DNA of 34,226 bases, taken from assembly GCA_046546295.1 (NCBI GenBank), contig JBKGYB010000001.1:1-34226 (forward strand), in the 5' to 3' direction. Shown one piece after another: positions 2,035-34,226 of the stretch (positions within the stretch are counted from its first letter, which is position 1; every line of letters begins with the position of its first letter). Position numbers and translations under genes: made by a program. The notes under the pieces were generated by a model. It ran no database searches. It was not told where the DNA came from and worked only from the letters and a program-made list of their open reading frames with translations. This DNA is from Opitutales bacterium. GTDB lineage: Bacteria > Verrucomicrobiota > Verrucomicrobiia > Opitutales > Coraliomargaritaceae.

Positions 2035-2068
2035 TCGCACCCTGGCGGGTGGAGCGGAATATAAACTT

Positions 2069-3434: not shown

Positions 3435-5195
3435 ATGGCACTGGCCAGAATTCAAGCATCCATCGTGCAGCACCTGCAAAAGATGGGGTACCTTTCCAAG
3501 GTGCAGTACGATACCATTGTTGGAACAGATGAAGAGCTTTCCGGCGAGGCGGTCGAAAAGCTCCTGCTGGAGGAATACAAGGTCAGTCAATTTCAACTTG
3601 TTCTGGCAAAGGGCAAAGCCTTTGATTTGCCGCCGATCAATGTTCGTCACTGCCTTGTCGACGAGAACAATTTCGAGAAGTTGGACAAGGAATTCTGCCG
3701 GGAAAACAATGTACTGCCCATAGGCTTTGCGGCCGATTACATGATCGTGGCAGTGGGCAACCCGTTCAATGTTCAATTGACCAGTAAAATGCAGAAAACC
3801 GCGGGAATGCGGATTTGCATTTTGCTGGGACTGGACGACGACATTGCCAACGCGCTTGAAGAGAGCAAGGAGGAGAAGCAGCAAGTTGGTTTCGGGGATG
3901 TCGTCGATGCCTTGGGCATGCAATTTAACGATGAGGAGCAGTTGGAGGAAGACTTTTCGGACGAAGAATCCGCGCCGATTATCCAGCTTGCCAATCGGAT
4001 TGTTGAGGAAGCCTACTATTCCGGCGCCAGTGATATCCATATCGAACCATTTGAAAGCGAAACCCGCGTCCGTGCCCGAGTGGACGGGGTGCTGCGAAAC
4101 CGCCTGACTATTCCACCCGGCGCCTCTTCCGCCTTGCTTGCCCGTATCAAGGTGATGGCGCAGATGGACATTGCTGAAAAGCGGAAGCCCCAGGACGGGC
4201 GTATCGTGTTTAAACAGTTCAACAAGAGAGGGATCGATGTTGACCTGCGTGTATCGACGGCGCCCCTGAACCATGGCGAGGGAGCGGTGATGCGGCTCCT
4301 CGACAAACAGAAAAGCGCGCTGCCCCTGCCCGCCCTCGGTTTTTCCGAGCGCAACCTCGGGTTGTACAGGGAGTTGATCCAGCGTTCGTATGGCATGATC
4401 CTCCATTGCGGTCCGACGGGTTCAGGCAAGTCGATGACGCTTTATTCCGCTCTCAATGAGATCAACAAGCCGGACATTTGTATCCGGACGGCAGAGGACC
4501 CCATTGAGTATACATTGCCGGGTCTATTGCAGATGCAGGTACAACCGCGGATCGGGCTTACCTTTGCCGCGGCGTTGCGTTCGTTCCTCCGTCAGGATCC
4601 GGATGTAATTCTGGTCGGTGAAATCCGTGACAGGGAAACCGCTGGTATCGCCGTCGAAGCGGCGCTCACGGGGCACTTGCTTTTCAGCACTCTGCACACG
4701 AATGATGCGCCGACCACGATTTCCCGGCTTACGGAAATGGGGATCGAGCCATTTATGATTTCCGCGTCGATTCTTTGTGTTTGCGCGCAGCGCCTCATGC
4801 GTCGTGTATGCAAATCATGCATGAAGCCTTATACGCAGGAGGGCAACGAAGCGGCGATTATGGAGCGTGCCATCGGCTGGAGCGGGAAAGTGCGGGCGGC
4901 CGGCAAGGAAGGTTGCCCGAATTGCGGGAGTATCGGCTACAAGGGGCGTGTCGGCATCCACGAACTAATGGCAACCAGTGAAGAACTGATCAAAGCCATC
5001 AACAGTGGAGAGGAGGCGGCCGTCTTGAAGCGGATTGCCATGCGCAACGGGATGATGACGCTCCACCAGGACAGTCTGCTTAAAGTCCGGGAAGGACTGT
5101 CCACCATGGAAGAAGCGCTGGGTACGGTGCCTCCCGACATGGAGGAGTATGAAATCGACCACAACGCGCCCCAGGTTGAAAAGGTGAAGGCCTGA
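3435..5195 (+). CDS. pilB: Type IV pilus assembly / type II secretion ATPase (PilB/GspE family)
   Basis: 586 aa. It has an N-terminal GspE_N-like domain, Walker A GPTGSGKS, Asp box EDPIEY, Walker B ILVGEIRD and His box [12 protein letters not shown]. The tetracysteine CKSC...[18 protein letters not shown] is typical of PilB/GspE. Confidence 0.9.
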
Positions 5196-15293: not shown

Positions 15294-16556
15294 ATGAACC
15301 CTCGATTCCAAAAATTCCCGCTTGCTCCCATTGTGGGCGCAATTGCCGCAACGGCCATTTCTCTGTCTCTTCCGTCCACGGCATCCCTGTCGGCGTCGCC
15401 TCTGGTATCGATCGGTGATACGATGGACGTTTATTTCAACGGCTCCACCAGTCTGCGCCATTCTTCAAATGTTTTCCGTGACGAGCAGGGCGAGGAAAGC
15501 GATTTGTATTGGACGATTTCACCCGGTTTTGAAATAAACCTGGGGCGCGGTGATTCCGATGTTAATTTCAACGTAACAACCAGATATGATATTCTCCGTT
15601 ACGACGATCTCTCCGAACTGGACGCCGAACTGTTCCACATTGTGGCGAGAGGTTCCTATGAGGGCAGTCGTTTGTCACTCAACGGCAGTGCCGCTTTTGA
15701 CGAATACCAGACCGCGACCGGGGATGCAAACATTGCCGGAGACCTGATTGAATTCGAGACGACAAAAGGCAGTGTGGACGGGGAATACCAATTTTCCCCG
15801 AAATTCAGCTTCGGCGCCGGCGCCAGCTACAACGAGAAGGAATACCAAACCTTCCAGCGATTCTTCAATGATCGGGAAACCTATTCATTCCCGTTCGACG
15901 TGTATTACAAGTGGACCCCGAAGGTGGACTTGAGCGCGGGCTATCGTTATAGCCAGACTGAAGTGGACGGGCGGACAAGCACTACTGAGCAGGTGGCCAG
16001 TTACGACACGGAAAAACACTTTTTCAACGTGGGCATGCGGGGTAATTTGCTGCCCAAGCTGACCGGCTTTTTCAAGGTCGGGTACACGACCCGGGATTCC
16101 GATGATTCAGCCCGGAGCCGCTTGGTATTCCAGAACAATCAATTTCAATGGCAGGATGATACAATTCGCCGCGACTCGAGCGGAATGCTCGGTATGGACG
16201 CGAATTTCACTTGGGCGACCACTCCGAAATTCACGACACAGCTGAAGCTTTCCCGTGACTTCGGGGCCTCGGGCGAAGGCAATGTAACGGAGAACAGTTC
16301 GGCTACGCTTATCGGGAACTACACGATCAACAACTACGTCAGCGCCAGCGGAAATCTGGGTTATACGCGTCGGGATTATCAGGACAACAACGACCGTGAA
16401 GACGACCGTATCGATGCGGGAGTAGCCTTGAATTACAGGCCGGACGAGCATTGGACGTTCAGCACCGGCTATAACTATGCGGAAAATGATTCCAATGAAA
16501 ATGATCAAAGTTGGGACGAACATGTTTTCCATTTGACGGCTTCGCTTCGTTACTAA
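15294..16556 (+). CDS. Putative outer-membrane beta-barrel protein associated with the polysaccharide export locus
   Basis: It has a signal peptide (IVGAIAATAISLSLPSTASLSA). Alternating-hydrophobicity strands rich in Y/G/N/D/S/T are consistent with a beta-barrel. The C-terminal LTASLRY is an aromatic-terminal OMP signature. It sits immediately upstream of the Wza- and Wzc-like genes. Confidence 0.65.
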   Translation: MNPRFQKFPLAPIVGAIAATAISLSLPSTASLSASPLVSIGDTMDVYFNGSTSLRHSSNVFRDEQGEESDLYWTISPGFEINLGRGDSDVNFNVTTRYDILRYDDLSELDAELFHIVARGSYEGSRLSLNGSAAFDEYQTATGDANIAGDLIEFETTKGSVDGEYQFSPKFSFGAGASYNEKEYQTFQRFFNDRETYSFPFDVYYKWTPKVDLSAGYRYSQTEVDGRTSTTEQVASYDTEKHFFNVGMRGNLLPKLTGFFKVGYTTRDSDDSARSRLVFQNNQFQWQDDTIRRDSSGMLGMDANFTWATTPKFTTQLKLSRDFGASGEGNVTENSSATLIGNYTINNYVSASGNLGYTRRDYQDNNDREDDRIDAGVALNYRPDEHWTFSTGYNYAENDSNENDQSWDEHVFHLTASLRY

Positions 16557-16576
16557 AAAGTTGGAACGTTTAATAC

Positions 16577-16612
16577 GGGAAGCGGTCATAAAAAGACCGC
16601 TTCCCTTTATTT
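16577..16612 (+). terminator. Rho-independent terminator after the OM beta-barrel gene
   Basis: A perfect 11-bp stem GGGAAGCGGTC (16577-16587) pairs with GACCGCTTCCC (16595-16605) around a 7-nt loop. TTTATTT follows. Confidence 0.8.
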
Positions 16613-16649
16613 CAGCAAGGGTTGGACCCCTACTTTCTTTACTCGTGTT

Positions 16650-17342
16650 ATGAGACGACTGACGCTATTCACAGCTATGCTACTTGCCCTGTTGCCATTT
16701 GTGCTGCAAGCCCAGGACGGCGGCCAAAGTCAAGGTGGTTATTCTTCAGGAGAGGCGGACGCTGGTACGCCCTCTGCCACGGCAAGAGGTCAGCAAGGTG
16801 GCGTCGGAGGCCCTACCGGGATGGGGATGGTCGTTGCCGAAAACTACGAGCTGAAACCATCGGATGTCGTTGAGGTTCAGGTCTATCGGGAAGAGGATCT
16901 GCATAAGCAAGTGAGGATCGAAGGCGACGGGAGCGTAAACTTGCCGCTGATTGGCAAAGTGAAGGTTGGAGGCATGACAGTGTCGGAGGCCCAGTCGCTC
17001 ATTACCGAGCTGTATGAGCGGGATTATCTGGTTAATCCTCAGGTTTCACTGCTCGTAACTTCATTTTCCCCCAAAGTTGTTCGTGTGCTTGGGTCGGTAA
17101 GCAGGCCGGGGCCGGTCGAGATCCCTTCGGATCGTGAGTTGACGCTCACGGATGCAATAGCGGGTGTCAACGGCATCACACGCCTCGGAAACCCGAAATC
17201 AATCATCATCAAACGAACGGATGAGGACGGGAAAACCCGGAACATGGAAGTGAATTTCAATAAAATTATCACGGATCCCGACAGGAAGGATATTGTCCTG
17301 CAGAAAGGCGATACGATTTGGGTACCGGAACGGATCATTTAG
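16650..17342 (+). CDS. Polysaccharide export protein (Wza-like; Poly_export + SLBB)
   Basis: A signal peptide is followed by a Gly/Gln-rich linker. Then comes YELKPSDVVEVQVYREEDLHKQVRIEGDGSVNLPLIGKVKVGGMTVSEAQSLITELY..YLVNPQVSL (Poly_export) and a following SLBB-like segment. Confidence 0.85.
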   Translation: MRRLTLFTAMLLALLPFVLQAQDGGQSQGGYSSGEADAGTPSATARGQQGGVGGPTGMGMVVAENYELKPSDVVEVQVYREEDLHKQVRIEGDGSVNLPLIGKVKVGGMTVSEAQSLITELYERDYLVNPQVSLLVTSFSPKVVRVLGSVSRPGPVEIPSDRELTLTDAIAGVNGITRLGNPKSIIIKRTDEDGKTRNMEVNFNKIITDPDRKDIVLQKGDTIWVPERII

Positions 17343-17359
17343 ATCAAGAATAGGGCGTT

Positions 17360-19633
17360 ATGAGAAACAGTTATATCAAGGGCGGCATCGATCCTGCCGA
17401 TGGGGGTTACGGCGGTTATGGCGGGGGCTACGGCGGCGGCTATGGCGGTGGTTATGGCTACGGCAGCTATGGCGGCGGCGAGGGCGGCGGCCCCCAACGC
17501 AGCGCCAAGGATTATATGCTCATGCTTCGTGAGCGGATCTGGTATTTGGTCGTCGCGTTCTTCATTGTTTTTTCGGGCGCCGTGCTGTACACCTTTAATA
17601 CGACAAAGGTCTATACGACTAGCTCCAAAGTTCAGCTGCTGCGCGACGATCCTTCTGCTATGGGAAACAGCGGACAAGTGGAGGCTCATCAGATCAATTC
17701 GAGCGAGGATCTGAATACACAGATCGAAATTCTGGAGAGCATGACCATTGTAAACGCGGTCAAGGATCGGCTCCAGGAGGAAGAACGCGAACAGTTTATG
17801 GAGCCCTACCGGGATTCGTACAGTTTCCTCCCATCGCTCAATATCTCTGAAATCCTGATGCGGAACCGGCGTATCATCCCGGAACGCATGAGCTTGATTG
17901 TGAACATTGCGTACACCCACCCGGATCCGGAAATGGCGGCGCGGGTGGCGAATCTGTTTGCTGATGAATATATTGAGTACAACCTGAGCCATAATATCGA
18001 CCAGTCGATGCAGGCGGTGGAAGACCTTCGTACCCGTGCGGATCGGCAGAGAGAGGAGGTTGAAGACTTGGACATGCAACTCGCGGAATACCGTGAAGAC
18101 AACAATGCCGTTTCTCTCAGCGAACAGGAAAATATCGCACGTCAACAACTTGCGACGCTGAATGACATTGAATTGTCGGCCAGGAACGAATTGGACAAAT
18201 ACCAGACCCGCCGGAATTTGATCGAGATGTACCAGGTCGAGGGGAAGGATCTTTGGCAGCTATCCTTTATTGCCGAACAAGAACGCGTGCGAAACTTATT
18301 GCAGAGCCTGTCCGATCTGGAAGTTGAGATCTCCACATTAAGCAAGCGATACAAGGAAAAGCATCCGGAAATGATCCGCTTGCTTGAAGCAAAGCGGGAG
18401 ACGCTTGCCGAATTACAGGAAGCCTCACAAAATGCGGTGGATAAGGTGTATGCGGGCTATGCCGAAGGCTTGGAAAACTTCGAAGTCGCCGAAAAGCGAC
18501 TTGCCCAAAAGGAACAGGAATTGATCGATTTGAGCAAGCTGCGCGTTGATTACGCTTCTTTGGAACGTGAACTTGATGTTCAGGAAGGATATTTGGAGGC
18601 GATTATCGGACGCATGACGCAGGAGCAGACGGAGGTGAATTTGAAAAACCCGAATGCCCGGATCGTGGATGAAGCCTTTGCTCCGGCGCCCGAGAATTAT
18701 TCCTCGCCCAATATACCGATGAATCTGGCTGCCGGCTTTTTTGGCGGTCTTGCCGTGGGGACCGGCCTGGTCTTTCTTGTGGCCTTTCTTGACGACCGTG
18801 TGAAGAGCGCCTTTGACATTGAAGGGACGATCGGCCTGCCTCTTCTGGGCGTGGTGCCGCGAATCAAGAAACTTGATACTAATTCCAAGGCGCAGGCGGT
18901 TGCGACGAATGCGGATCAGCATATAACGGAGATCTTCCGGTCGATGCATTCGACGCTCAAACTGAATGATGAAAGCAAGCATGCTAAGGTTGTGCTTGTG
19001 TCCAGCACCATTCCGGGAGAAGGCAAGTCGTTTATCAGCTCCAATCTTACGCTCACTTTCGCAAGCCACGGCGAGAAGACGCTGTTGATTGACGCCGATT
19101 TGCGCCTGCCGAATGTTGCCCGCTCGCTTCAGCTGGAAAACGAGGTCGGGTTGTTGAATCATCTTACGAAGGGAGACAGTTTGGATGATGTCATTCTCAA
19201 AGAGATCTATCCGAATATGGATGTGCTCACTTCGGGCGGGAAATCAAAAAATCCCACTCAAATCATGAGCAGCGCTGAGTTTGAGGCGATGCTTGCTGAA
19301 TTGCGCGACCGATACGACCGGATTGTTATTGACTCGCCGCCATTGGCTGCGGTCAGCGACGCACTGACGCTCCTGCCTTACGCGGACGGGGTGGTCTACG
19401 TCATCAAGTTCAATACAGTGAAGCGCAAGACGGCGATGGCAAACATCCGACGCTTGTGGGAATCGGATACGCCTGTTTTCGGGGCGGTGTTGAATAATAT
19501 CAGCGGATCCTTCTCCAGTTACTATTATTCACAGGCAACGGACCCGAGCTATCAGGATTATTACATCCGCCAGGAGGAGGAACTGGAAGAGGATCTGGCT
19601 GCGTCGGTTGAACCGGGGAAGGGCAAGAGTTAG
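17360..19633 (+). CDS. Polysaccharide co-polymerase / bacterial tyrosine autokinase (Wzc/GumC-like)
   Basis: It has a TM helix, a long coiled-coil periplasmic region and a second TM. The kinase motifs are Walker A PGEGKSF, Walker A' LLIDADLRLP and Walker B IVIDSPPL. The C-terminal Tyr cluster is SSYYYSQATDPSYQDYY. An N-terminal GGY repeat is also present. Confidence 0.88.
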   Translation: MRNSYIKGGIDPADGGYGGYGGGYGGGYGGGYGYGSYGGGEGGGPQRSAKDYMLMLRERIWYLVVAFFIVFSGAVLYTFNTTKVYTTSSKVQLLRDDPSAMGNSGQVEAHQINSSEDLNTQIEILESMTIVNAVKDRLQEEEREQFMEPYRDSYSFLPSLNISEILMRNRRIIPERMSLIVNIAYTHPDPEMAARVANLFADEYIEYNLSHNIDQSMQAVEDLRTRADRQREEVEDLDMQLAEYREDNNAVSLSEQENIARQQLATLNDIELSARNELDKYQTRRNLIEMYQVEGKDLWQLSFIAEQERVRNLLQSLSDLEVEISTLSKRYKEKHPEMIRLLEAKRETLAELQEASQNAVDKVYAGYAEGLENFEVAEKRLAQKEQELIDLSKLRVDYASLERELDVQEGYLEAIIGRMTQEQTEVNLKNPNARIVDEAFAPAPENYSSPNIPMNLAAGFFGGLAVGTGLVFLVAFLDDRVKSAFDIEGTIGLPLLGVVPRIKKLDTNSKAQAVATNADQHITEIFRSMHSTLKLNDESKHAKVVLVSSTIPGEGKSFISSNLTLTFASHGEKTLLIDADLRLPNVARSLQLENEVGLLNHLTKGDSLDDVILKEIYPNMDVLTSGGKSKNPTQIMSSAEFEAMLAELRDRYDRIVIDSPPLAAVSDALTLLPYADGVVYVIKFNTVKRKTAMANIRRLWESDTPVFGAVLNNISGSFSSYYYSQATDPSYQDYYIRQEEELEEDLAASVEPGKGKS

Positions 19634-24560: not shown

Positions 24561-24637
24561 GAGCTGCTTGCATTGGAGTTATGAAATGTTCTTCGAAACT
24601 TGATTTACGGTGTTTTTTGAAGGAGTTTATATTGTAT

Positions 24638-25789
24638 ATGACGGAAATGGCAAAAACGGACCCTAACAAGAAAGTGTATCCGGCGCAAGGAGGCAAGTTC
24701 AGTATGATCGATCTTCTTCGGAGTTTTGCGGACCCTGAACTTGAAGTGGATGGAATGCCGCGGATTTCGGATTTGCACCTTAAGGCGGGGGATCCCGTCC
24801 GCTACCGCTTTGACGGGGAACTCGAAACCATTGACGAGGGCGAGCCCCTGACCGAAGAACTGGTGCGGGAACTGGTTTTTCCGCTCTTGAGCGAGGATCA
24901 ACGGGAGCGCCTTACATCGGACACGTCTTTTGATCTGGATACGGGGTTTTCGTGGGAGGAAGAGAATATTAACTTTCGTCTGAATGTCTTTCACGACCGG
25001 GACGGGATGGCCTGCGTCATGCGCATGCTCCCCAAGCACATCCCCGAAATTGATCAACTGGGCTTTATGAACCCCCAAGTCTGGCAGGACCTCGTTACGT
25101 TGAAGCAGGGGCTCGTCCTTGTTTCGGGAGTAACGGGCAGCGGCAAATCAACGACACTCGCGAGCCTGATCGACTACATCAACAAAAGCCGGAAGGTTCG
25201 CATTATTACGCTGGAAGATCCGGTGGAGTATGTTTTTCACAGCGAACAGGCGTTGATTTCCCAACGGGAGCTCGGGCGACATTTAACCACTTTTGCATCA
25301 GGCCTGCGCAGCGCGCTCCGGGAAAACCCGGACATTATTTATGTTGGCGAGATTCGTGATCCGGAAACCGCAACCCTGGCCCTGACAGCTGCCGAAACCG
25401 GGCACTTGGTGCTTTCAACCCTCCATACAAAAGACGTCAAAGGCGCCTTCAGCAGGATTGTCGACATGTTTCCCGGCGAACGAAGCAACGAGATTTCGGC
25501 TCAGCTGTCTTTTACCTTGGCGTATGTGATCAGCCAGAAGCTGCTTCCGCGTGCGGAGGGCAACGGTCGGGCGCCGGCTTTTGAGGTGTTGAAAAATACC
25601 ACCGCGCTCGGCAATATTGTCCGGACCGGAAAAACACACCAGATCTACGGCAAGATTGAAACAAGCGCCAACGAAGGAATGAATACGATGGAGCAGCATT
25701 TGATCGCACTGTACCAGGAAGGAGTCATCACAAAAGAGGATGCTGTCGCGCACGCCAATGACCCGGCGATCGTCGAGCGCTTGCAATAA
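24638..25789 (+). CDS. pilT: Type IV pilus retraction ATPase PilT
   Basis: The motifs are [15 protein letters not shown], Walker [27 protein letters not shown] and [10 protein letters not shown]. The PilT-type C-terminal motif is [10 protein letters not shown] (cf. AIRNLIREGK). The start is uncertain: ATG 24638, in-frame TTG 24632 (6 nt after AGGAG) or ATG 24704. Confidence 0.88.
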
Positions 25790-25890: not shown

Positions 25891-27291
25891 ATGGCAAAAC
25901 AGGAAAAACAAGTGACTTGGGGCGGACGTTTTACGGAAGGCCCATCGGATTTAATGGTGCGTATCGGGGAATCGGTCTCTTTTGATCAGCGCCTGGCCTG
26001 TTTTGACGTGCAGGGTAGCAAGGCGCATGCCGCCATGCTGGCCCATGTCGGACTTTTGGAGACACAGGAGCGCGATGCCATTCGGGCGGGGCTGGACGCG
26101 ATCCGGGAATCCATTGAAGCGGGCGCCTTCGAGTGGGATCCCCGGCTGGAGGATGTGCACATGAACATTGAACAGGCGTTGACCGCGCGCGTGCCGGCTG
26201 CGGCCAAATTGCACACCGGCCGGAGCCGGAACGACCAGATCGCCACGGATATGCGGCTTTGGTTCAAGGACGCTTGTGATAAAATCGATCTGTCGTTAAG
26301 CGCGGCCAGTTCGGCGCTGGTGGAATTGGCCGATCGCACGAAAGAAGTGCGACTACCGGGCTATACTCATTTGCAACGGGCGCAGCCAGTGTCGATGGCG
26401 CATCATTTGCTCGCCTATGTCGAAATGCTGGATCGGGACAGGCGCCGCTTCTCGGCCGTCCATGAGCAGGCCAATGTTTGTCCTTTGGGGTCGGGTGCGA
26501 TCGCCGGAACGACCCTGCCGATAGACCGTGCGTACGTCGCCCGCGAGCTGGGGTTCGTTGATGCAAATGGGCAGCCCCGGATCACCCGGAACAGTATGGA
26601 CGCGGTCAGCGACCGGGATGTGTTTATTGATTTCGCCTCCGCATGTGCGACAACAGGCGTCCATCTTTCCCGGTTGTCCGAAGATCTGATTCTTTGGAAC
26701 AGCGGGGAGTTCGGTTTTATTCATTTGCCGGACGCCTTTACAACGGGGTCCAGTTTGATGCCGCAGAAAAAGAACCCCGATGCTTTCGAGTTGATTCGGG
26801 GCAAATCCGCGCGTTTGAGCGGCAACCTGCAATCATTGCTTGGGATGGTGAAAGGTCTGCCTTTGACCTACAACCGGGATCTGCAGGAAGACAAAATCCC
26901 GGTTTTCGATTCCTTTGACCAGATTCATTTGATGCTCGATACGGTGGCCGCATGCATTGCAGGGGTTCAGGCAAACAAGGAACGTTGTGAGGCGGCCGTT
27001 GCCGATCCCGCCCTCCTTGCAACGGATGTCGTCGATTATCTGGTTCTGCGGGGCGTGCCCTTCCGTGAGGCGCATCATGTGGTGGGATCGCTCGTCCGTG
27101 TTGCGGAAGAACAAGAGGTGCGTCTTGATTGTCTGCCCTATGAGTCGGTGGTTGCCATCCACCCGAAACTCGGGGAGGACTGGAACCAGGTGTTCGATCT
27201 CGACCGGGCCTTCCGTGAGCGGGAAAAACCGGGCATGCCGGGCCCGCGGGAAGTTGAAGGACGGATTGAGCGCTGGCGCAGTCAAGTCTGA
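25891..27291 (+). CDS. argH: Argininosuccinate lyase
   Basis: [29 protein letters not shown] and the signature [12 protein letters not shown] are present. The start is set at ATG 25891 ([14 protein letters not shown]). Confidence 0.93.
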
Positions 27292-27298
27292 CAGGCTG

Positions 27299-27658
27299 CT
27301 AAATGTCGGCGAAAGAAAAAGGACGTTCCGGGGAGCCTTCGTTGATGGCCAGACGATCCCTGACAATGGGAAGGGTCAGGATGACCGCGGGCTTGTTGTC
27401 GGCCTGCCCGCGGTAAGTGGTCTGGCCCAGCCACGGGCTTCGTTTTTCAGCGAACCGGTAGCCCCGGCTTTCCAAATCCTTCCCGAGCGCCACCATTTTT
27501 GTGCGGCTCATGCCGGTTCCTTGAAAATCCAGGACCAAGTGTCCGTTGTCGCCCTTTTCGACGTCGAGCGTGCATTCGACCTCGGGTGTGTGTTTTTGGA
27601 TGTAAACGAGGACTTTTGCGGCTCTTTCGAGCCGGTGCCGTAGAATGCGCGGTTTCAT
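27299..27658 (-). CDS. Hypothetical protein (119 aa)
   Basis: This clean ORF fills the gap between argH and the UDG gene and is co-directional with the UDG gene. No motif is recognised. Confidence 0.45.
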   Translation of the reverse strand: MKPRILRHRLERAAKVLVYIQKHTPEVECTLDVEKGDNGHLVLDFQGTGMSRTKMVALGKDLESRGYRFAEKRSPWLGQTTYRGQADNKPAVILTLPIVRDRLAINEGSPERPFSFADI

Positions 27659-27706
27659 GGCGAAGCAACTTACTCCAATCTTTCTCCGGAATCAAGAAGC
27701 GCCTTC

Positions 27707-28633
27707 TTAAAGGAAATAACGACGCTGCTTTTCGCTGATGGGAAGGCTGAGTTGCTCCATGACAGCGAGCATGTCTTCCCAGACCCGGCGTTTGGTCTTC
27801 AAGGTATCGTTGCGGAGAATATAGGAGGGGTGAAAGGTGACCATGAGGGGGATATCCGAAAAGCTGTGCCAGACGCCGCGTATCCGCCCCATTTTCCGCG
27901 CAGGATCGTGCCCGAGGAGTCCGTCAACGGCGGTTTTCCCGAGCGCAACCACAACTTTCGGTTGAATGATCTCGATCTGGGCATGCAGATAAGGCAGACA
28001 GAAGCGCATTTCCTCCGGGGTGGGCGGGCGGTTGCCGAATGACTTGTCATGTTCGGGACGCCATTTGAGAATATTCGCAATGTAAACGGATTCACGGTCC
28101 AGGCCCATGGCTTTGATGATCTGATCCAGCTTGTGGCCCGCTTTGCCCACGAAGGGCTCGCCGCAGGCCGCTTCCTCGGCGCCCGGCGCCTCCCCGCAAA
28201 ACAAGAGCTCCGCTTCCGGGGAGCCAGCGCCGAATACGATTTTGCCGTCCGGCTCAAGGCGTTCATTGCAAACCGGGCACGCTTCGACCTGTTTTTTCAG
28301 TTTTTCCAGGCGCGTGGCGGGATCGCCTGCCGGGATTTGAACCGAAGGCGGGGATTCCGGGATCGGTCTGGTCTTTGATGTTTCCCGCTGCGACGTCTCT
28401 TTGCGCGTTGATTTGGAAGGAGCGACGGGCAGTGATGCGGCGGGGGTACGGGTAGACGCATCGGCTGCGGCACGCGGGCGGGATGTGTCGCTTTGAGCGC
28501 TTCCGTCCCCGGCGGGGCGCGGCGCTGATTCGGTTAACGTGGTCCAGGCCGCTTCGCTGACAAAAACCTGTTTCGTTCCCGTGTTGCGGAGTCGTTTGAG
28601 TTCTTCATGGATTGCTGCAAGGGCTGCCTTCAT
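27707..28633 (-). CDS. Uracil-DNA glycosylase, family 4, with long N-terminal extension
   Basis: The C-terminal core carries CPVC (Fe-S ligands), GEAPGAEEAACGEPFVGKAGHKL (family-4 GEAPG motif) and TFHPSYILRN (HPS motif). A Pro/Ser/Thr/Ala-rich linker of about 80 aa precedes the core. The start is set at ATG 28633 (MKAALAAIHEEL); an alternative ATG lies at 28729. Confidence 0.85.
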   Translation of the reverse strand: MKAALAAIHEELKRLRNTGTKQVFVSEAAWTTLTESAPRPAGDGSAQSDTSRPRAAADASTRTPAASLPVAPSKSTRKETSQRETSKTRPIPESPPSVQIPAGDPATRLEKLKKQVEACPVCNERLEPDGKIVFGAGSPEAELLFCGEAPGAEEAACGEPFVGKAGHKLDQIIKAMGLDRESVYIANILKWRPEHDKSFGNRPPTPEEMRFCLPYLHAQIEIIQPKVVVALGKTAVDGLLGHDPARKMGRIRGVWHSFSDIPLMVTFHPSYILRNDTLKTKRRVWEDMLAVMEQLSLPISEKQRRYFL

Positions 28634-28897
28634 GGAACCGGATCCTGAAAACCGGAAGGGCCGGAGGCAAGAGCGCAAATGTTTTTGCCTATAAATCGGG
28701 GCTGCGTTGAATCGCACGGAATCACTCATCGCTGGAAAGCCCCGCTTTTCTTATTAATCTTTTTCTGGCGCCAAATTAGCAATTCTTATTGTTAGGATTC
28801 TTGTTTCTAAAAAAATTGTAAATACCGAATGGTTTTTATTTGAACCTTTACACGAATTTATCCTATGTTATACGTAGACTCAGGACAAACCTGCCAG

Positions 28898-28927
28898 CTA
28901 TATCCCATCCTAGTGTCTATATCCCAT
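28898..28927. promoter_or_regulatory. 11-bp direct repeat CTATATCCCAT (x2, 19-bp period) in the AT-rich upstream region; candidate operator/promoter element
   Basis: CTATATCCCAT occurs at 28898-28908 and again at 28917-28927. A partial third copy, GAATCCCGT, follows. The repeats lie 29-58 bp upstream of ATG 28956, inside a conspicuously AT-rich 226-bp intergenic region. Their function is inferred only. Confidence 0.3.
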
Positions 28928-28955
28928 TATAGAATCCCGTTAATGACAAATTTAT

Positions 28956-30182
28956 ATGAGTGAAAAGGCGACGCTTTTGGAGAAGACGCCACCGATTGCA
29001 AAAGCGGGCGAAAAGTCCGGTCAAGCGGACACGGGCGGAGAATCCGGTCAAGCGGACGCGGGCGGAAAGTCCGGTCAAGCGGACGCGGGCAAAGAGTCCG
29101 ATCAAGCTGACGCGGGCGAAGAGTCCGATCAAGCACAAGCGGTCGGATCGGAGACCGTCGCCCAAGAGGTAGAGCCCCAGATGACAGTGTTCCAGGCAGT
29201 GACATACGGGTCCTTTGTCCTGACCTTTTGTTTGGCGGGTTTCGTCGCACTCGTTCTGTTCCGAAAGCTTGCGAAACTCTTGGAACCACGGTTTATTTTC
29301 GGCGCGAAAGCGCTGGGGGCAGGATTTGTAATAGTCGCGTTACATGGAGTTTTTGCCACCTACCTCTATACAAACTTTCTTTATGGTGAGTCGGAAGCCA
29401 TGCCCGTGGTGTTTTCCATGGCCTTGTGGATTGCGCTTGGCCCATGTGTAGGGGTGGTTCTCGGGCATTTGCTTACACCGGGAAAGCGACCTGAGCGTGC
29501 TCGGCTGATTGTCAATACCGCGTTGTATGGCATTGTGTTTTTTCTTGCCACACTCAGTCTCGCCAGTGGCATTAAAGAGAACGCAGCGCTGATTTTCTCT
29601 CTCCTTGCGATGTGCTTGTATATCGTTCCGCTTGCGCGTATGCTTGTCGATTTCCACACCGCGAAAGCCCGGCATTCCGAGCTGCGGGGAATATGGAATC
29701 AGTTGCTCATTTATGGATTGGTCGTTTTTCCCGCGCTCATTCTCTTGCTTGGTTTTGTTCGGCTCTGCGGGCTCGATGCCGGATTAACCCAGTTTTTGAT
29801 CAATTTCCTGCTGTTTGACTTTGTTCTTCTGAGCGGAATCGCCATGCTCGGGGCAGCCGACGAAATGACGGAGGCGGCCACCGCGACTTCGACGGATGCC
29901 GCAACGACGCAATTGAACGCGAAGGCGCAAGACGACGACACGTCTTCGAAGGCCAAGCCGAAATCACCTGCGACGGCTGAGCCGGATACGGCTGTTTCAT
30001 TCGAAGCGGAGAAACAAGAGGATCATTCCCCGGATGCCGCAAAGCAACCTTCCCGGGAAAAGCCCCAAAGCGAGCCTGTTCCCCCGAAAAAGCCCGGCCG
30101 CTCGAAGTCGAAGGATAAGCCGGCGGCGCCGAACGCGCCCTCGCGCCTGAAAGCGCCGTCTCGTCCGAAGAAACGCTTCTAA
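28956..30182 (+). CDS. Seven-TM membrane protein with N-terminal acidic 9-aa repeats and a Lys/Pro-rich C-terminal tail
   Basis: 408 aa. Residues ~17-60 are G-x-x-S-G/D-Q-A-D-A repeats. Residues ~80-300 hold seven hydrophobic helices with short loops. Residues ~300-408 are low complexity (PKKPGRSKSKDKPAAP...PSRPKKRF). The family is not recognised. Confidence 0.75.
   Translation: MSEKATLLEKTPPIAKAGEKSGQADTGGESGQADAGGKSGQADAGKESDQADAGEESDQAQAVGSETVAQEVEPQMTVFQAVTYGSFVLTFCLAGFVALVLFRKLAKLLEPRFIFGAKALGAGFVIVALHGVFATYLYTNFLYGESEAMPVVFSMALWIALGPCVGVVLGHLLTPGKRPERARLIVNTALYGIVFFLATLSLASGIKENAALIFSLLAMCLYIVPLARMLVDFHTAKARHSELRGIWNQLLIYGLVVFPALILLLGFVRLCGLDAGLTQFLINFLLFDFVLLSGIAMLGAADEMTEAATATSTDAATTQLNAKAQDDDTSSKAKPKSPATAEPDTAVSFEAEKQEDHSPDAAKQPSREKPQSEPVPPKKPGRSKSKDKPAAPNAPSRLKAPSRPKKRF
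29007..29141 (+). repeat. Five tandem copies of a 27-bp in-frame repeat (GGCGGAGAATCCGGTCAAGCGGACGCG consensus)
   Basis: The units are 29007-29033, 29034-29060, 29061-29087, 29088-29114 and 29115-29141. The last is diverged at its 3' end. They encode GEKSGQADT/GGESGQADA/GGKSGQADA/GKESDQADA/GEESDQAQA. Confidence 0.9.
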
Positions 30183-30218
30183 AAAAATTAAAGCTAAAAC
30201 CAAAACCCCAGCCACGCA

Positions 30219-31181
30219 ATGATTATGGATATATCCGGAATGGGTTTCACCGATGAAGTCAGTTCACTTCAGCCGGGAATGGAACTCGGCAATCTGCAAA
30301 TCGTCAGTTTCGTCGGCAAGGGAGCGATTGGCGAAGTCTATCTCGCTCAGCACGAGACACTTGGCAAGGAATTCGCTGTTAAAGTAATTCCCAAAGGGTT
30401 TACTGAAGACGAGGCGCAATCGGTTTTCAAGCAGGCTGCCCGAATCCAGAAAAATTTGGACCACCCCCATATTGTGCGGATAGATGATCTGGGTGAAGAG
30501 GATATGTTTTACTGGTTGCGGATGGAGTCTATTGAAGGCGAGCTTACCGCCGACAACATCCGGCTTCGCTCACTGGAAGACCTGATGCAACACACCAAAG
30601 CTCCCCTGAGCGAGGAGGAGGTGTGTTATTATCTGTACTATCTGTTGCTTGGTCTGGACCATGCGTTTCGGCAGGATCTTGTCCACGCCGACTTGAAACC
30701 TTCCAATGTGCTGTTGGCTGAAGAGGGTGTGAAAATCGCTGAACTTGGAGTTACGGATTTGATCGGACATGCATGGGACGACTTTCACTTGTTGCGGCAA
30801 AATCCCCGCTTGGAACCTACTCCGTTTGATCCCCTGCCCGGGTTCAGTCGTCTCCTTCCCGCACTGCTCAACACTTTCGAGTACTTCAGCCCGGAACAAC
30901 GCGCGGGTAAAGCCCCTTCCGTTCAAAGCAATCTATTTACCGTAGGTCTTATGGCCTACCGCATGCTTACCGGGCGCAATTGTCATTCCGTGGATCCTCC
31001 CACGCATGTGGTCAACGGGATCAATCCCAAATGGGACGCGTGGATTGAGCGGGCGCTTGCCTATGATGCCGAAGACCGCTTTGAATCCGCAACCGAGATG
31101 CTGGAGATGATGCCGGGCCTCGAAATCGAAGAGACGGAAGACGAGAGTTCGATGGGCAGCGCTGAAGCGTCTGCCGGTTGA
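30219..31181 (+). CDS. Hanks-type Ser/Thr protein kinase-like protein (atypical: DFG replaced by ELG)
   Basis: The Gly-loop is GKGAIGEV, the VAIK-like Lys is in FAVKVI, and the catalytic loop is HADLKPSNVLL. KIAELGV (30741-30749) stands where DFG is expected. The activation segment is long (~50 aa) and ends in SPE(Q). There is no additional sensor domain. Confidence 0.8.
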   Translation: MIMDISGMGFTDEVSSLQPGMELGNLQIVSFVGKGAIGEVYLAQHETLGKEFAVKVIPKGFTEDEAQSVFKQAARIQKNLDHPHIVRIDDLGEEDMFYWLRMESIEGELTADNIRLRSLEDLMQHTKAPLSEEEVCYYLYYLLLGLDHAFRQDLVHADLKPSNVLLAEEGVKIAELGVTDLIGHAWDDFHLLRQNPRLEPTPFDPLPGFSRLLPALLNTFEYFSPEQRAGKAPSVQSNLFTVGLMAYRMLTGRNCHSVDPPTHVVNGINPKWDAWIERALAYDAEDRFESATEMLEMMPGLEIEETEDESSMGSAEASAG

Positions 31182-31244
31182 ACGGCGGCTTAAATAAAAA
31201 GAAAACTCAAAACCGAAAATATTAATCCGAACCCAAAAATAACC

Positions 31245-31958
31245 ATGCAGCGCAAATATAAAGTTACTACTTCTATCACCCAATACATGTGGGCGGCTTC
31301 ACGTGCGGATGCTGAAAAATACCAGGAAGAACTTCTTCACAAAGGCAAACTGGATGTATTCCGGCACGGTGAAACGGATGTTCGTTTTTGTTTTACCGGG
31401 GGGGGAGAGTTTATTGAAGCTCCCGAAGATATTTCGAAAACACGCGACCCGATCACGGAACCCAGGCGCGGCGATTGGTTGGAAGTCGGGCATGGGGATC
31501 TCAAGACATACGCTCTCGTGCGGCGTTTAACACGCCGCAAAGTATATTACTACGAAGGGCATTCCAAGACCGAGCGATCGGTTGATCGTGAGCGCTGGGA
31601 ACATTGGGCTTCGCAACATTGTGTTCACCCGTCCTACGACGGGATCGTGCCGCCATTCATTGTCGAAGAAGCCGTACAAGCCCATGAGGACCGCGGTTTG
31701 ATCAGTGGGTTAGCCGCAACGCCGGACTCTTCCTTAATTCTCGAAATCCTTGATAAATACGATTACGTGCCGGATGATTATGATCTAGAAAACGGGTATT
31801 GGGCCGAAGTGTATATTGACCGGGTCATTTCCGAAAAAATACTCTCCGCTTCGGGGAACAAATCGTCTCTGGCGACCGGAACCGACGGGGACTTGGAGAG
31901 TGGTGATTTTTCGGTTGGATTCTCCGAAGAGCTTCCTACAATTGATGAATTTGAATAA
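31245..31958 (+). CDS. Hypothetical protein (237 aa) with a strongly acidic C-terminal tail
   Basis: This clean ORF is on the same strand, 63 bp after the kinase gene and 51 bp before the ParA-like gene. No motif is recognised. The tail is ...DGDLESGDFSVGFSEELPTIDEFE. Confidence 0.6.
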   Translation: MQRKYKVTTSITQYMWAASRADAEKYQEELLHKGKLDVFRHGETDVRFCFTGGGEFIEAPEDISKTRDPITEPRRGDWLEVGHGDLKTYALVRRLTRRKVYYYEGHSKTERSVDRERWEHWASQHCVHPSYDGIVPPFIVEEAVQAHEDRGLISGLAATPDSSLILEILDKYDYVPDDYDLENGYWAEVYIDRVISEKILSASGNKSSLATGTDGDLESGDFSVGFSEELPTIDEFE

Positions 31959-32009
31959 TAACAATGAAGCGGGCGCGGAACCGCCTGATTCTTTTTAACT
32001 AACAAAATC

Positions 32010-32927
32010 ATGCCTCGAAAACTTGCTTTTATCAACTATAAGGGAGGGGTCGGAAAAACTTCTCTAATCGTCAACATCGCAGCCTGTCTTGCAAAAAAGG
32101 GCAACCGTGTGTTGCTCTGCGATCTTGATACACAGTCTAATTCCAGTATCTGGCTGCTGCGCATTGAAAGGTGGAACCGGATCAATATGGAAAAGCGGGG
32201 TTCCATCTATTCGATTTTCGACCCCGGCGAGGAAAGGTTGAAAGATATCCTGGTGAAGGACGCCGTTCAGGACAATCAGGGGAGGCCGCAACTACCCGGA
32301 CTCGATTTGTTGCCGACGACTTTCAACTTCATTGACATCGAGAACGAATATAAGATCAATCCCCAGAACCCGCATTATAAGATATTCAACGAACAGATTC
32401 GGGAAATCGAAGGGGATTATGATTTCATTCTCTATGATTGCCCGCCCAATGTGCTCAACGCTTCGCAATGTGGGATTTTCAGCGCGACGGAACTGTACGT
32501 GCCTGCCAACCCGGACGCTCTGTCACTTATCGGGTTTACATTGATGATTGAAAAACTTCTGCTTTTTTACCGACGGTCCTCCGGCTTTCGAACTCCTGAA
32601 ATGGGCAATTTTGCCCGGGTTGCCGGCATTATGTTTAATTCGATCAAAGCTAATGTCGACATCGGCGTGCCGAAGATGCGCATGCAGCTGCGGCTCAACC
32701 AGTTCAAAAAACAACGACTGGTTTCGGATAGGGCAAAGATCTACGATGCCTGTGTTCGCGATGCTACAATTGTACGTCGAGCGGTAACGCTCGGTTTGCC
32801 GGTGTGCCTTGTTGAAAGTCGCGATGTCGCCGACGGAGTTGGCAAGGACTACGATGATTTGGCCGAAGAAATTCTGGCTCATAATGTGAATGACGCCGTA
32901 AATGCCTCTTTGGCATCCGCTTCTTGA
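32010..32927 (+). CDS. ParA/MinD-family P-loop ATPase (deviant Walker A)
   Basis: The deviant Walker A with signature Lys is KLAFINYKGGVGKTS. Walker A' is VLLCDLDTQSNSS and Walker B is FILYDCPPN. At 305 aa it is longer than a typical chromosomal ParA/Soj. Confidence 0.85.
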   Translation: MPRKLAFINYKGGVGKTSLIVNIAACLAKKGNRVLLCDLDTQSNSSIWLLRIERWNRINMEKRGSIYSIFDPGEERLKDILVKDAVQDNQGRPQLPGLDLLPTTFNFIDIENEYKINPQNPHYKIFNEQIREIEGDYDFILYDCPPNVLNASQCGIFSATELYVPANPDALSLIGFTLMIEKLLLFYRRSSGFRTPEMGNFARVAGIMFNSIKANVDIGVPKMRMQLRLNQFKKQRLVSDRAKIYDACVRDATIVRRAVTLGLPVCLVESRDVADGVGKDYDDLAEEILAHNVNDAVNASLASAS

Positions 32928-32964
32928 AAATCCCGGAAAAACATGTATTGTAATTTTCCCTGAC

Positions 32965-34011
32965 ATGAGTGAAAAAAAAGACACAGCGAATGTGTGCGAC
33001 GAAAATATGGAAGCCTTGGCTGCCCGGTGGGATGCTGTGGCTTTTCGGGCGCAGGGCTCTCCTTTCGAGGACTTGACCGTTGCCTGTCTGGCAAAAAATT
33101 CGGGGGTGCGAAAATGGTCTCAGGGTGCAAGCAAAACACGAGGAGTGGATCCCACCCTCGGACGCTACATCTACCTCAGTTTTGAGGAATTGATGGATAG
33201 TGAAGGGTTGGATATAAGGCGTGCGAAGCAGTTGCTTGAGATTTGTGAAGCGACTTTTTTGCTTGAAGAGGAATATGAGAGTTTCGGGACTTTTGATGAA
33301 ATCAACAAGGAAGCCGAAGCCCGGCGGATGCGTTTTGTGGAAGAGTTCGGGCTTTATCAGGATTTTCCGGTAAAGTTGTCCAATCTCGATTCGGATTTAC
33401 GGGAGCTTTGTGAGGACGAGGGAGTGGAGACTTTTCTTGACTTGATGCGGTTTCTGGATCGCCTGGCCGACAAAGCATGGATTGATGGAAGCTACCGTAA
33501 TTTACAAAATGTTTTTGCTTATGGGGACGAAGAAGGGTTGACCCGGTATTTTCCGTATCGGCGCGGACATCGTGGCTTCCACCTGCCGGAAGCAGCAGCT
33601 TTTTGCTTGAGCCGTTTGTCGCAGAAAGATTTACAGGCTGTTCGCGATTATCACGAACGACGCCGGCGGGGACGTATGCGTGTGTTAGGCAAGCGGATGG
33701 ATCTGCCCGTTGTTGTTGAAAAACAACTCCTGCCGGAATTGCTGGGATGCTTGCATTATTTTGGATGTCGCCAGCCAAAACTTCTTGTGCGATTGCACGA
33801 CTCCGCGTATCTATGTCGCGAATTGATGTTCCTGAAAGATCCTCCAACGGAGAGTCTGCTCCACTGGTTGATCTTTTTGGCGCTCGGTTTGTTCAAGCCG
33901 ATCCAGGAGCTTGAGCCGGAAATAGGCGCTGAAATAAGAAATCTTTCGGGGCCGGTCCGGTCTGACATTTGCAAGGAACTCCGGGCGCTTGTTCAGGAGA
34001 GTGGAACTTAG
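32965..34011 (+). CDS. Hypothetical protein (348 aa), candidate partner of the ParA-like ATPase
   Basis: This ORF lies on the same strand 37 bp after the ParA-like gene. The start is set at ATG 32965 (MSEKKDTANV); the ORF-track start at 32902 overlaps parA. No ParB/HTH signature is recognised. The segments LSFEELMDSEGLDIRRAKQLLEI and LSNLDSDLRELCEDEGVETFLDLMRFL look helix-hairpin-helix-like by eye. A basic patch HERRRRGRMR is present. Confidence 0.6.
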   Translation: MSEKKDTANVCDENMEALAARWDAVAFRAQGSPFEDLTVACLAKNSGVRKWSQGASKTRGVDPTLGRYIYLSFEELMDSEGLDIRRAKQLLEICEATFLLEEEYESFGTFDEINKEAEARRMRFVEEFGLYQDFPVKLSNLDSDLRELCEDEGVETFLDLMRFLDRLADKAWIDGSYRNLQNVFAYGDEEGLTRYFPYRRGHRGFHLPEAAAFCLSRLSQKDLQAVRDYHERRRRGRMRVLGKRMDLPVVVEKQLLPELLGCLHYFGCRQPKLLVRLHDSAYLCRELMFLKDPPTESLLHWLIFLALGLFKPIQELEPEIGAEIRNLSGPVRSDICKELRALVQESGT

Positions 34012-34132
34012 GGCTTGTCAGCAAATAACCGTAGCAATCCGACTTGTTCTTTTGGCCGGTGACTGCGTTGCCTTTAAGACGATTGATGGTTGGATTTACC
34101 AGTCTGATTGTCCGGCATAGCCGTTCGACCCA

Positions 34133-34180
34133 TCGGCAAGCTCCCTTCGACCCCTTCGGCAAGCTCCCTTCGGCAGGCTC
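34133..34180. repeat. Short direct repeat TCGGCAAGCTCCCTTCG (x2, 23-bp period, plus a partial third copy) in the 3' non-coding region
   Basis: Identical 17-mers occur at 34133-34149 and 34156-34172. A partial TCGGCAGGCTC follows at 34170-34180. The repeats lie downstream of the last gene. Confidence 0.7.
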
Positions 34181-34226
34181 AGGATTCACAAACAGGACTG
34201 GCAAGCTCACCACGGGCCGGAACCGC

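Follow-up and report, generated by a model that had tools for sequence, protein, structure and literature searches.

What kind of system is encoded by five closely spaced genes at the right-hand end of a 34,226-nucleotide stretch from an Opitutales bacterium (assembly GCA_046546295.1, contig JBKGYB010000001.1, positions 1–34,226)? We refer to this whole stretch as the window and name the genes G1 to G5 in the 5′ to 3′ direction. An earlier note on this DNA, made from the sequence alone, had read them as a 7-transmembrane (7-TM) protein, an atypical Hanks kinase, an unknown protein, a ParA-MinD ATPase, and a second unknown protein, and these domain calls held. All five lie on the plus strand: G1 (28956–30182, 408 aa) encodes the 7-TM membrane protein, G2 (30219–31181, 320 aa) a stand-alone protein with a Hanks-type kinase fold, G3 (31245–31958, 237 aa) a protein of an undescribed family, G4 (32010–32927, 305 aa) a ParA/MinD-class ATPase, and G5 (32965–34011, 348 aa) an all-α protein that is the cognate ParA partner. 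The intergenic gaps of 36, 63, 51, and 37 bp are exactly those given in that note, and the start of G5 at 32965 was favoured by the N-termini of orthologues over a longer open reading frame (ORF) from 32902. We concluded that this is a real, vertically inherited, lineage-specific gene cluster of marine Opitutae (Verrucomicrobiota). With somewhat more confidence than doubt, we interpret it as a ParA positioning module carrying a pseudokinase; the module is probably a cell-organising machine and not a defence island.

A vertically inherited cluster of marine Opitutae

Conservation of the cluster was assessed with a synteny table built by tblastn from 56 species-representative loci seeded with G3; loci are designated by L-numbers, and a wider set comprised 66 loci. 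All 56 species-level loci belonged to Opitutales, and the five-gene order was complete in approximately 34 of these genomes (Coraliomargarita/Puniceicoccaceae clade), a collinearity that bears out the earlier suggestion of a single unit. Homologues of G3 and G5 were likewise all from Opitutales, namely Coraliomargarita, Thalassobacterium, Puniceicoccaceae, Cerasicoccus, and Ruficoccus. The arrangement in Coraliomargarita akajimensis was identical: a uracil-DNA glycosylase (UDG) gene on the minus strand was followed by genes for a 408-aa protein, a kinase, a 240-aa protein, a ParA, and a 341-aa protein, the whole lying between clpC/mcsB and hflX. The flanking genes for UDG, ClpC, and HflX were alike in C. 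akajimensis and in locus L031.

Identity between the window and the loci of its clade was 76–90% for ParA (G4), 57–77% for the kinase (G2), 58–78% for G3, 45–64% for G5, and 25–45% for G1, and 37–62% for the neighbouring UDG. G2 to G5, with G1 excepted, were therefore conserved as well as, or better than, this housekeeping neighbour. The cluster occurred as a single chromosomal locus at a fixed position beside housekeeping genes across genera, and its identity dropped with taxonomic distance.

These observations bear on the earlier proposal of an acquired or fast-evolving island, which had started from AT-richness seen from the kinase gene onward. The compositional shift was real but modest. 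Gene GC content was 0.49–0.52 for G2 to G5 against 0.55–0.60 in most window genes, and GC at third codon positions (GC3) was 0.50–0.58 against 0.62–0.74 in the rest of the window. In the C. akajimensis cluster, the GC difference nearly vanished. The fixed flanks in other genera and the conservation of all genes except G1 speak against an island, and the synteny that the earlier note had proposed to look for in unrelated taxa and variable islands was found only in Opitutales and in a fixed chromosomal context.

A horizontally acquired anti-phage defence or conflict island, also raised in that note, could draw on the low GC3 of G2 to G5 and on matches to the PADLOC kinase and P-loop models PD-T4-6, mad6, mad8, and PDC-M28B. 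However, these matches were generic: they were limited to the kinase domain of G2 and to the first ~40–90 residues of G4 around the P-loop, the MAD6 model scored 80.9 bits against a cut-off of 460, and G1, G3, and G5 matched no PADLOC model. The full gene complement with specific matches was found for none of the known anti-phage systems PD-T4-6, MADS, PDC-M28, and BREX PglW. Furthermore, searches of plasmid, phage, and IMG/VR sequences with G3 and G5 yielded no relatives, and we saw no patchy strain-level presence or absence, no flanking integrases or tRNA sites, and no phage-resistance phenotypes. Because of the fixed housekeeping context, the conservation, the lack of mobile relatives, the generic PADLOC matches, and the near-disappearance of the GC difference in C. 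akajimensis, both the island and the defence readings are unsupported, and a defence function seems to us scarcely credible.

Three contigs carrying the full Opitutales cluster (L024, L034, and L036) are filed under metagenome-assembled genomes named Polaribacter, Zhongshania, and Yoonia, which are probably binning errors in public records.

The ParA-G5 core pair and its exchanged partners

ParA/MinD ATPases have roles in the organisation of chromosomes, division rings, carboxysomes, flagella, and chemoreceptor arrays. G4 is a member of this deviant Walker A superfamily: its motif KGGVGKT (nt 32040–32060) was invariant in 57 orthologues, with the signature lysine kept, and the protein matched AAA_31 with 113.5 bits (cut-off 27) and CbiA with 49.6 bits (cut-off 25.4). 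It reached no NCBIfam equivalog. The scores were 35.7 bits for minD_bact (cut-off 212.9), which does not place G4 in the MinD subfamily, and 59.9 bits for ParA_partition (cut-off 180). The closest structural and sequence relatives were Soj/ParA, with plasmid RepA models also near, and the Soj alignment covered only residues 5–187. Across the class Opitutae, G4 identity was 60–66%. The C-terminal third of G4 is conserved and basic, with a net charge of +9 and ten conserved lysine or arginine residues, and it ends in ...NDAVNASLASAS, where neither an amphipathic basic peptide nor a membrane helix was found. In ParA/MinD ATPases, a basic C-terminal face serves nucleoid binding and a membrane-targeting sequence serves membrane binding (PMC11407121). 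Since G4 has the former and no membrane helix, it is predicted by these criteria to bind the nucleoid and not the membrane.

The ParA-G5 pair was found across the class Opitutae, including Cerasicoccus/Ruficoccus-type genomes, and also in distant metagenomic contigs (L062 and L063), in Oleiharenicola (Opitutaceae, L064), and in Rubellicoccus (L065), where the ParA module adjoins SMC. The general expectation in the earlier note that a ParA partner is encoded directly downstream thereby holds throughout the class, and G4 and G5 form the invariant core pair of the module. A G5-family profile search of 1.84 billion representatives gave 114 clusters at 50% identity, and a second search gave 839 clusters at 90% identity, in which all named matches were from Opitutae. 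The first-mentioned family search also returned a 3555-aa predicted protein from a Logan assembly (P0249) with 35 stretches matching G5 residues 226–316; it looks like an assembly or tandem-repeat artefact and not a real giant protein, because the same peptide stands at its start and end.

G5 itself matched nothing in Pfam, NCBIfam, or PADLOC. Its AlphaFold2 model was all-α (predicted local distance difference test, pLDDT, 76.6), a Foldseek comparison of this model with the Protein Data Bank (PDB) gave nothing at E<0.001, and sequence-profile searches of the PDB gave nothing significant. A similarity of residues 58–93 to the RpoA α-CTD (helix-hairpin-helix) was weak (E=1.4) and disappeared with a broader family profile, and this candidate was dropped.

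The C-terminus of G5 distinguished the window's clade from its relatives. Outside this clade, G5 ends in a MinD-like amphipathic basic tail of the type KKGFFARLFGRK, for example KKKGFFARLFGRK, which by direct sequence comparison is near-identical to the C-terminus of Escherichia coli MinD, EEEKKGFLKRLFGG. Such a tail was present in 106 of 113 G5 proteins of the broader family, the other seven being obvious variants, against 0 of 120 in the window's clade. The comparison with MinD rests on direct sequence similarity because a hydrophobic-moment calculation on the terminal peptides did not discriminate. Judged from these counts, the window's clade has lost a membrane-targeting peptide that stands at the C-terminus of nearly all other G5 family members.

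A second difference concerned the third partner. In Opitutae outside the window's clade, ParA-G5 is followed by a gene for a coiled-coil protein of 200–250 aa, whose N-terminus carries the conserved basic peptide M..P.PPKKKRxISLRP; examples are L003 6665–7294(−), L051 7057–7662(−), L064 7979–8728(+), L065 7986–8615(+), and L063 6975–7727(+). A hidden Markov model (HMM) search for this gene in the window, in the loci of its clade, and in L044 found none at the locus, which is as far as the search extended. At the loci of the clade stands G1, a protein with seven hydrophobic or transmembrane (TM) segments (aa 84–298), an acidic N-terminal tail that varied from 39 to 163 aa among orthologues, and a disordered C-terminal tail of ~110 aa that is rich in proline, lysine, and serine, and in serine/threonine overall. 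In the window, a 27-bp tandem repeat of 4.9 copies (29004–29134, plus strand) encodes acidic 9-aa repeats of the N-terminal tail. The topology inferred from the positive-inside rule is N-out and C-in, which would place the C-terminal tail in the cytoplasm. No Pfam model matched G1 at threshold (the best was OST3_OST6, 17 bits against a cut-off of 27), no NCBIfam model matched, and no HMM match assigned it to a described 7-TM receptor, rhodopsin, or 7TMR-DISM family.

Despite the poor overall conservation of G1, its C-terminal peptide, NAPSRLKAPSRPKKRF-COOH in the window (30132–30179, plus strand), was near-invariant in ~38 loci, with the consensus NAPSRxKAPxKPKKRF-COOH. We regard this peptide as a candidate docking or activating peptide for the ParA module. 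In a Puniceicoccaceae locus (L035 8105–8998(+)), a 297-aa protein with a single TM segment takes the place of the 7-TM protein and has the same kind of ending, KAPSKPKKLF. Since the TM core shows little conservation and a single TM helix can stand in for it, and only the terminal peptide is invariant, G1 fits an anchor better than a sensor.

Among the 66 loci, ~38 had a KPKKRF-type protein, 16 had the coiled-coil protein, and none had both. G1 and G2 were always adjacent and gained together, and their gain coincided with the loss of the coiled-coil gene; to judge from this distribution, the window's clade has swapped the coiled-coil third partner for G1 and G2 at the locus. The G5 membrane tail is still present in two loci, L044, which has G1 and G2, and L048, in which no G1-type peptide was detected. 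The loss of the G5 tail therefore came after the third-partner swap. G1 and G2 were added late to an older module of ParA and G5 and do not belong to its core.

G2 matched Pkinase with 101 bits (9e-29; cut-off 31.7), in agreement with a kinase fold, and its closest PDB relatives were StkP and PknB. The Gly loop, the VAIK lysine, the catalytic-loop asparagine, and the SPE motif are kept. In the window, HRD has become HAD (aa 156–158), DFG has become ELG (aa 175–177), the αC glutamate has become glutamine, and the segment from ELG to SPE spans ~50 aa. Alanine or asparagine stood in place of the HRD aspartate in 12 of 43 orthologues, among them that of C. akajimensis (HTALKPSN) and the copies that branch deepest; the DFG position was ELG or EFG in nearly all clade members, an aspartate-to-glutamate change, and the αC glutamate position was variable. 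The αC glutamate, HRD aspartate, and DFG aspartate, whose conservation marks an active Hanks-type Ser/Thr kinase, are thus not conserved among the G2 orthologues. Because of the lost catalytic aspartate in those 12 orthologues and the ELG motif, G2 is probably a pseudokinase. An identity of 57–77% despite degraded motifs is, at the level of sequence, the signature of a pseudokinase scaffold, although the window's own G2 (HAD...ELG) could retain weak activity.

Bacterial Hanks-type pseudokinases such as the MviN pseudokinase domain of mycobacteria also combine degraded motifs with strong purifying selection and presumably act as scaffolds, like G2. G2 differs from them as a stand-alone cytosolic domain coupled genetically to a ParA module, and in its long segment between ELG and SPE and its retained nucleotide-binding Gly loop and lysine.

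The earlier note had considered phosphorylation control. In such a scheme of active phospho-signalling, the 7-TM protein would sense an external cue and activate G2 as a Ser/Thr kinase, and phosphorylation of G4, G5, G3, or the G1 tail would control positioning. The obligate adjacency and joint gain of G1 and G2, the serine/threonine-rich G1 tail, and the residues that G2 of the window retains (Gly loop, VAIK lysine, HxD aspartate, catalytic-loop asparagine, and SPE) are in its favour; the degradation of the HRD, DFG, and αC positions among orthologues and the anchor-like character of G1, with its replaceable TM core, are against it. The kinase fold in that proposal stood, while control by phosphorylation became doubtful because the catalytic residues are not conserved among orthologues, and we consider active signalling unlikely.

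G3 belongs to a family restricted to Puniceicoccales-type Opitutae. It adjoined ParA in all G3-seeded loci whose contigs reach that far and was divergent from ParA or collinear with it, depending on the lineage. The AlphaFold2 model (pLDDT 80.3) comprised an N-terminal α/β unit, a small SH3/KOW-like barrel (aa 78–114), and a helical domain, and a disordered acidic tail ends in the conserved FSEELPTIDEF (nt 31905–31955). Foldseek comparison with the PDB gave nothing at E<0.001, with only the short barrel showing high local probability, and G3 had no Pfam, NCBIfam, or PADLOC match and no significant hit in a PDB sequence-profile search. The two proteins that had remained unrecognised in the earlier note, G3 of 237 aa and G5 of 348 aa, accordingly lie outside described families after Pfam and AlphaFold/Foldseek checks, with no significant fold, and the cluster as a whole matched no named system.

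In two loci, L029 and L031, only G3 and ParA of the cluster were detected. The variant in L031 (7838–13130; L029 likewise) reads ClpC-UDG-181 aa-G3-ParA-HflX, and G1, G2, and G5 were not detected at the locus; G5 may be encoded elsewhere or lost. Such loci without G1, G2, or G5, the lineages in which G3 is divergent from ParA-G5, and a hairpin between G3 and G4 (described below) could mean that five functionally unrelated genes merely sit together. However, the G3-ParA-G5 adjacency survives rearrangement and order-level divergence, and the joint gain of G1 and G2 coincides with the coiled-coil loss and is followed by the loss of the G5 tail. We consider mere proximity very improbable.

Flanking DNA and the remaining window

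The cluster is preceded by an AT-rich leader or promoter region (28730–28955, plus strand; 226 bp, 34.5% GC) shared with the divergent UDG gene. The direct repeats that the earlier note had seen there are two copies of CTATATCCCAT at 28898–28908 and 28917–28927. This repeat was unique within the window, with a chance expectation of 0.2, and it was not found in the 66 related loci; because it is not conserved among relatives, we make no claim of an operator. Promoter and terminator scans gave totals not above those of shuffled sequences, and an Rfam scan of 27000–34226 gave no match. Between G3 and G4, a GC-rich hairpin followed by a T-run (31970–31987, plus strand) may act as a partial terminator or attenuator.

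Downstream of G5, the 215 bp to the window end (34012–34226) contained no convincing ORF, in agreement with the more than 200 bp of non-coding DNA with repeats described before. They include a GC-rich direct repeat of 23 nt in 2.2 copies (34124–34172, no strand assigned) of the GGCAAGCTCCCTTCG type. It is probably an intergenic repeat unrelated to the cluster and may be a repetitive extragenic palindromic (REP)-like element in a region cut by the window end. In C. akajimensis, hflX lies on this side, and comparison showed that the C-terminus of HflX is not encoded in the 215 bp.

The UDG-superfamily gene (27707–28729, minus strand), which is divergent from the cluster and borders it on the left as a conserved neighbour in most genomes of the clade, encodes a low-complexity N-terminal extension of ~165 aa. 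The remaining window is ordinary chromosome, with leuCD, argH, recQ, sua5, an exopolysaccharide (EPS) export cluster, and pilus/secretion ATPases. The polysaccharide export cluster (15294–19633) encodes a BBP2_2 β-barrel porin, a Wza-like Poly_export/SLBB protein, and a 757-aa protein combining Wzz with a ParA-fold, tyrosine-autokinase-like part; its bulk GC content of 0.50–0.54 is also below that of its flanks. The 757-aa protein is the second ParA-fold P-loop protein in the window and is unrelated to G4. Two T2SSE-family ATPases are encoded at 3435–5195 and 24581–25789, one resembling GspE/PilB and bearing an MshEN domain, the other resembling PilT, and the stretch 727–3385 holds two response-regulator genes, of which one includes a sigma-54 AAA+ domain.

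Proposed role and relation to known systems

Partners of ParA/MinD ATPases activate them by means of short terminal peptides of positive charge that sit on a variety of scaffolds, and PomX is a coiled-coil scaffold with such an activating peptide (PMC7993993). Because partners typically activate by a basic terminal peptide, the ancestral operon, consisting of ParA, G5 with its membrane helix, and a coiled coil with a basic N-terminus, reads as a nucleoid-referenced positioning system. In the mechanism that we propose, G4 dimers would bind the nucleoid in the ATP form, and a membrane-associated assembly of G5 and G1, in which G3 and G2 would serve as scaffold or regulatory subunits, would dock on G4. 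A short basic terminal peptide would stimulate ATP hydrolysis by G4; in the window's clade, the C-terminus of G1 would take over the job that the N-terminus of the coiled-coil protein does elsewhere. The assembly would thereby take up its position on the membrane with reference to the nucleoid, in the manner of the gradient mechanisms of PomXYZ, McdAB, and ParABS. The change in the clade would have moved the activating or docking peptide to the C-terminus of the membrane-anchored G1, on a flexible tether of 100–200 aa, so that G5 would no longer need a membrane helix of its own. G2 would serve as a nucleotide-binding pseudokinase scaffold or switch and not as a phosphotransferase.

Four described systems offer points of comparison. 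PomXYZ, which positions the division site in Myxococcus xanthus, combines a nucleoid-binding ParA-type ATPase with two non-ParB partners encoded adjacently; one partner, a coiled-coil scaffold, bears the short basic activating peptide at its N-terminus (PMC7993993). The likeness is one of architecture only, set by description: it lies between PomXYZ and the ancestral ParA-G5-coiled coil arrangement with its basic N-terminus, and it is matched only in Opitutae loci other than the window, which has no coiled-coil gene at the locus. In contrast to PomXYZ, whose complex is described as nucleoid-associated, G5 bears a membrane-targeting peptide, and the window has a membrane protein with a C-terminal basic peptide instead of the coiled coil, together with a pseudokinase and G3. 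MinCDE shares the ParA/MinD-class ATPase, the KKGF(L/F)xRLFG peptide that is near-identical in E. coli MinD and most G5 proteins, and division-site control, for which the module is also a candidate. However, the membrane peptide here is on the partner G5 and not on the ATPase, the C-terminal region of G4 is basic and ParA-like, neither MinC nor MinE has a homologue here, and the score of G4 falls well short of the MinD model cut-offs.

The McdAB and orphan ParA-adaptor systems resemble the cluster in combining a nucleoid ParA gradient with a small, fast-evolving, lineage-specific adaptor that carries a charged terminal peptide (PMC11407121). They differ from it in that no carboxysome or bacterial microcompartment (BMC) context was seen here, G4 keeps the signature Walker A lysine, and the adaptors are larger, partly membrane-bound, and multi-component.

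ParABS (Soj-Spo0J, RepAB) shares Soj/ParA as relatives of G4 and a partner gene directly downstream. Membership would entail a ParB-type partner and a centromere repeat, whereas G3 and G5 had no Pfam or NCBIfam match, ParB domains are absent from the partner, a conserved parS-like repeat was not found, and the Soj alignment stops at G4 residue 187. These differences also bear on a role in DNA partition or nucleoid-membrane tethering, in which G5 would be a DNA-binding protein, centromere-like or, as a Noc-like protein of nucleoid occlusion, binding DNA and carrying a membrane helix, and G4 would segregate or organise the chromosome. The closeness of G4 to Soj/ParA and plasmid RepA models, the conserved all-α body of G5 with a membrane helix in most lineages, and the position of the Rubellicoccus module next to SMC agree with it. 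However, neither G5 nor G3 matched ParB/HTH, ParBc, or another DNA-binding family, the helix-hairpin-helix hint was not reproduced with the broader profile, and G5 gave no fold match. We therefore rate DNA partition as decidedly improbable. As the defining features of MinD, ParABS, and the PADLOC systems were looked for and not found, the cluster stands outside all of these. By analogy, it would work like the PomXYZ, McdAB, and ParABS gradient systems, with a MinD-type membrane peptide borrowed on the partner.

Several points weigh against reading the cluster as a positioning module with a pseudokinase. The interactions among its proteins are all inferred from gene order and motif conservation, and the G3 and G5 models, having no significant fold match, give no pointer to a cargo. 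We saw no conserved link with fts/dcw genes. In L029 and L031 the locus contains G3-ParA and nothing else of the module, and in L061 G5 stands by itself; components can therefore be separated or encoded elsewhere. L008, L043, L048, and L060 have the kinase and no detected G1-type peptide. To our knowledge, ATPase-activating peptides described so far are N-terminal, whereas that of G1 is C-terminal. Finally, G2 of the window retains the HxD aspartate and the VAIK lysine.

Opitutae of this kind are FtsZ-containing cocci. MinCDE has been inferred to be lost in the ancestor of the Planctomycetes-Verrucomicrobia-Chlamydiae (PVC) bacteria (PMC2474590). Because this ancestor is reported to be without MinCDE, placement of the division site or of envelope machinery is the most plausible guess for the cargo. 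As the specific role of the module, division-site placement is nonetheless speculative, and we would sooner bet against it than for it. Our literature search on ParA systems of Opitutae or Verrucomicrobia, or on the pairing of ParA with a pseudokinase, found nothing relevant. A bolder proposal, in our view less likely than not, is that the cluster represents an undescribed ParA-based system of the class Opitutae that places a membrane-associated scaffold relative to the nucleoid and may be the division-site selector so far missing from PVC bacteria that have FtsZ and lack Min. It would consist of ParA, an all-α partner with a MinD-type membrane helix, and an interchangeable basic-peptide subunit; in the window's clade, the coiled-coil form of this subunit would have given way to a TM protein that displays the activating peptide at its C-terminus, on a long disordered tether, together with a pseudokinase.

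The case also carries a caution, in that a kinase and a ParA in DNA of low GC content are not enough to diagnose a defence island. As far as we know, every additional set of ParA/MinD partners has to date brought to light either another cargo or another mode of coupling to the ATPase. Conservation of the present module extends over an entire class of Verrucomicrobiota abundant in the sea and in soil, its partners lie outside described families and folds, and if the proposal is true, it would provide the first case of a ParA/MinD system coupled to both an integral membrane protein and a pseudokinase. Its history resembles a natural domain-swap experiment, in which the membrane helix belongs to the partner and not to the ATPase, a membrane protein with a C-terminal basic peptide has taken over from a coiled-coil activator, and a pseudokinase has been recruited. 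Since the PVC ancestor is reported to lack MinCDE, the cluster is a concrete and testable candidate for the choice of the division site in FtsZ-containing cocci.

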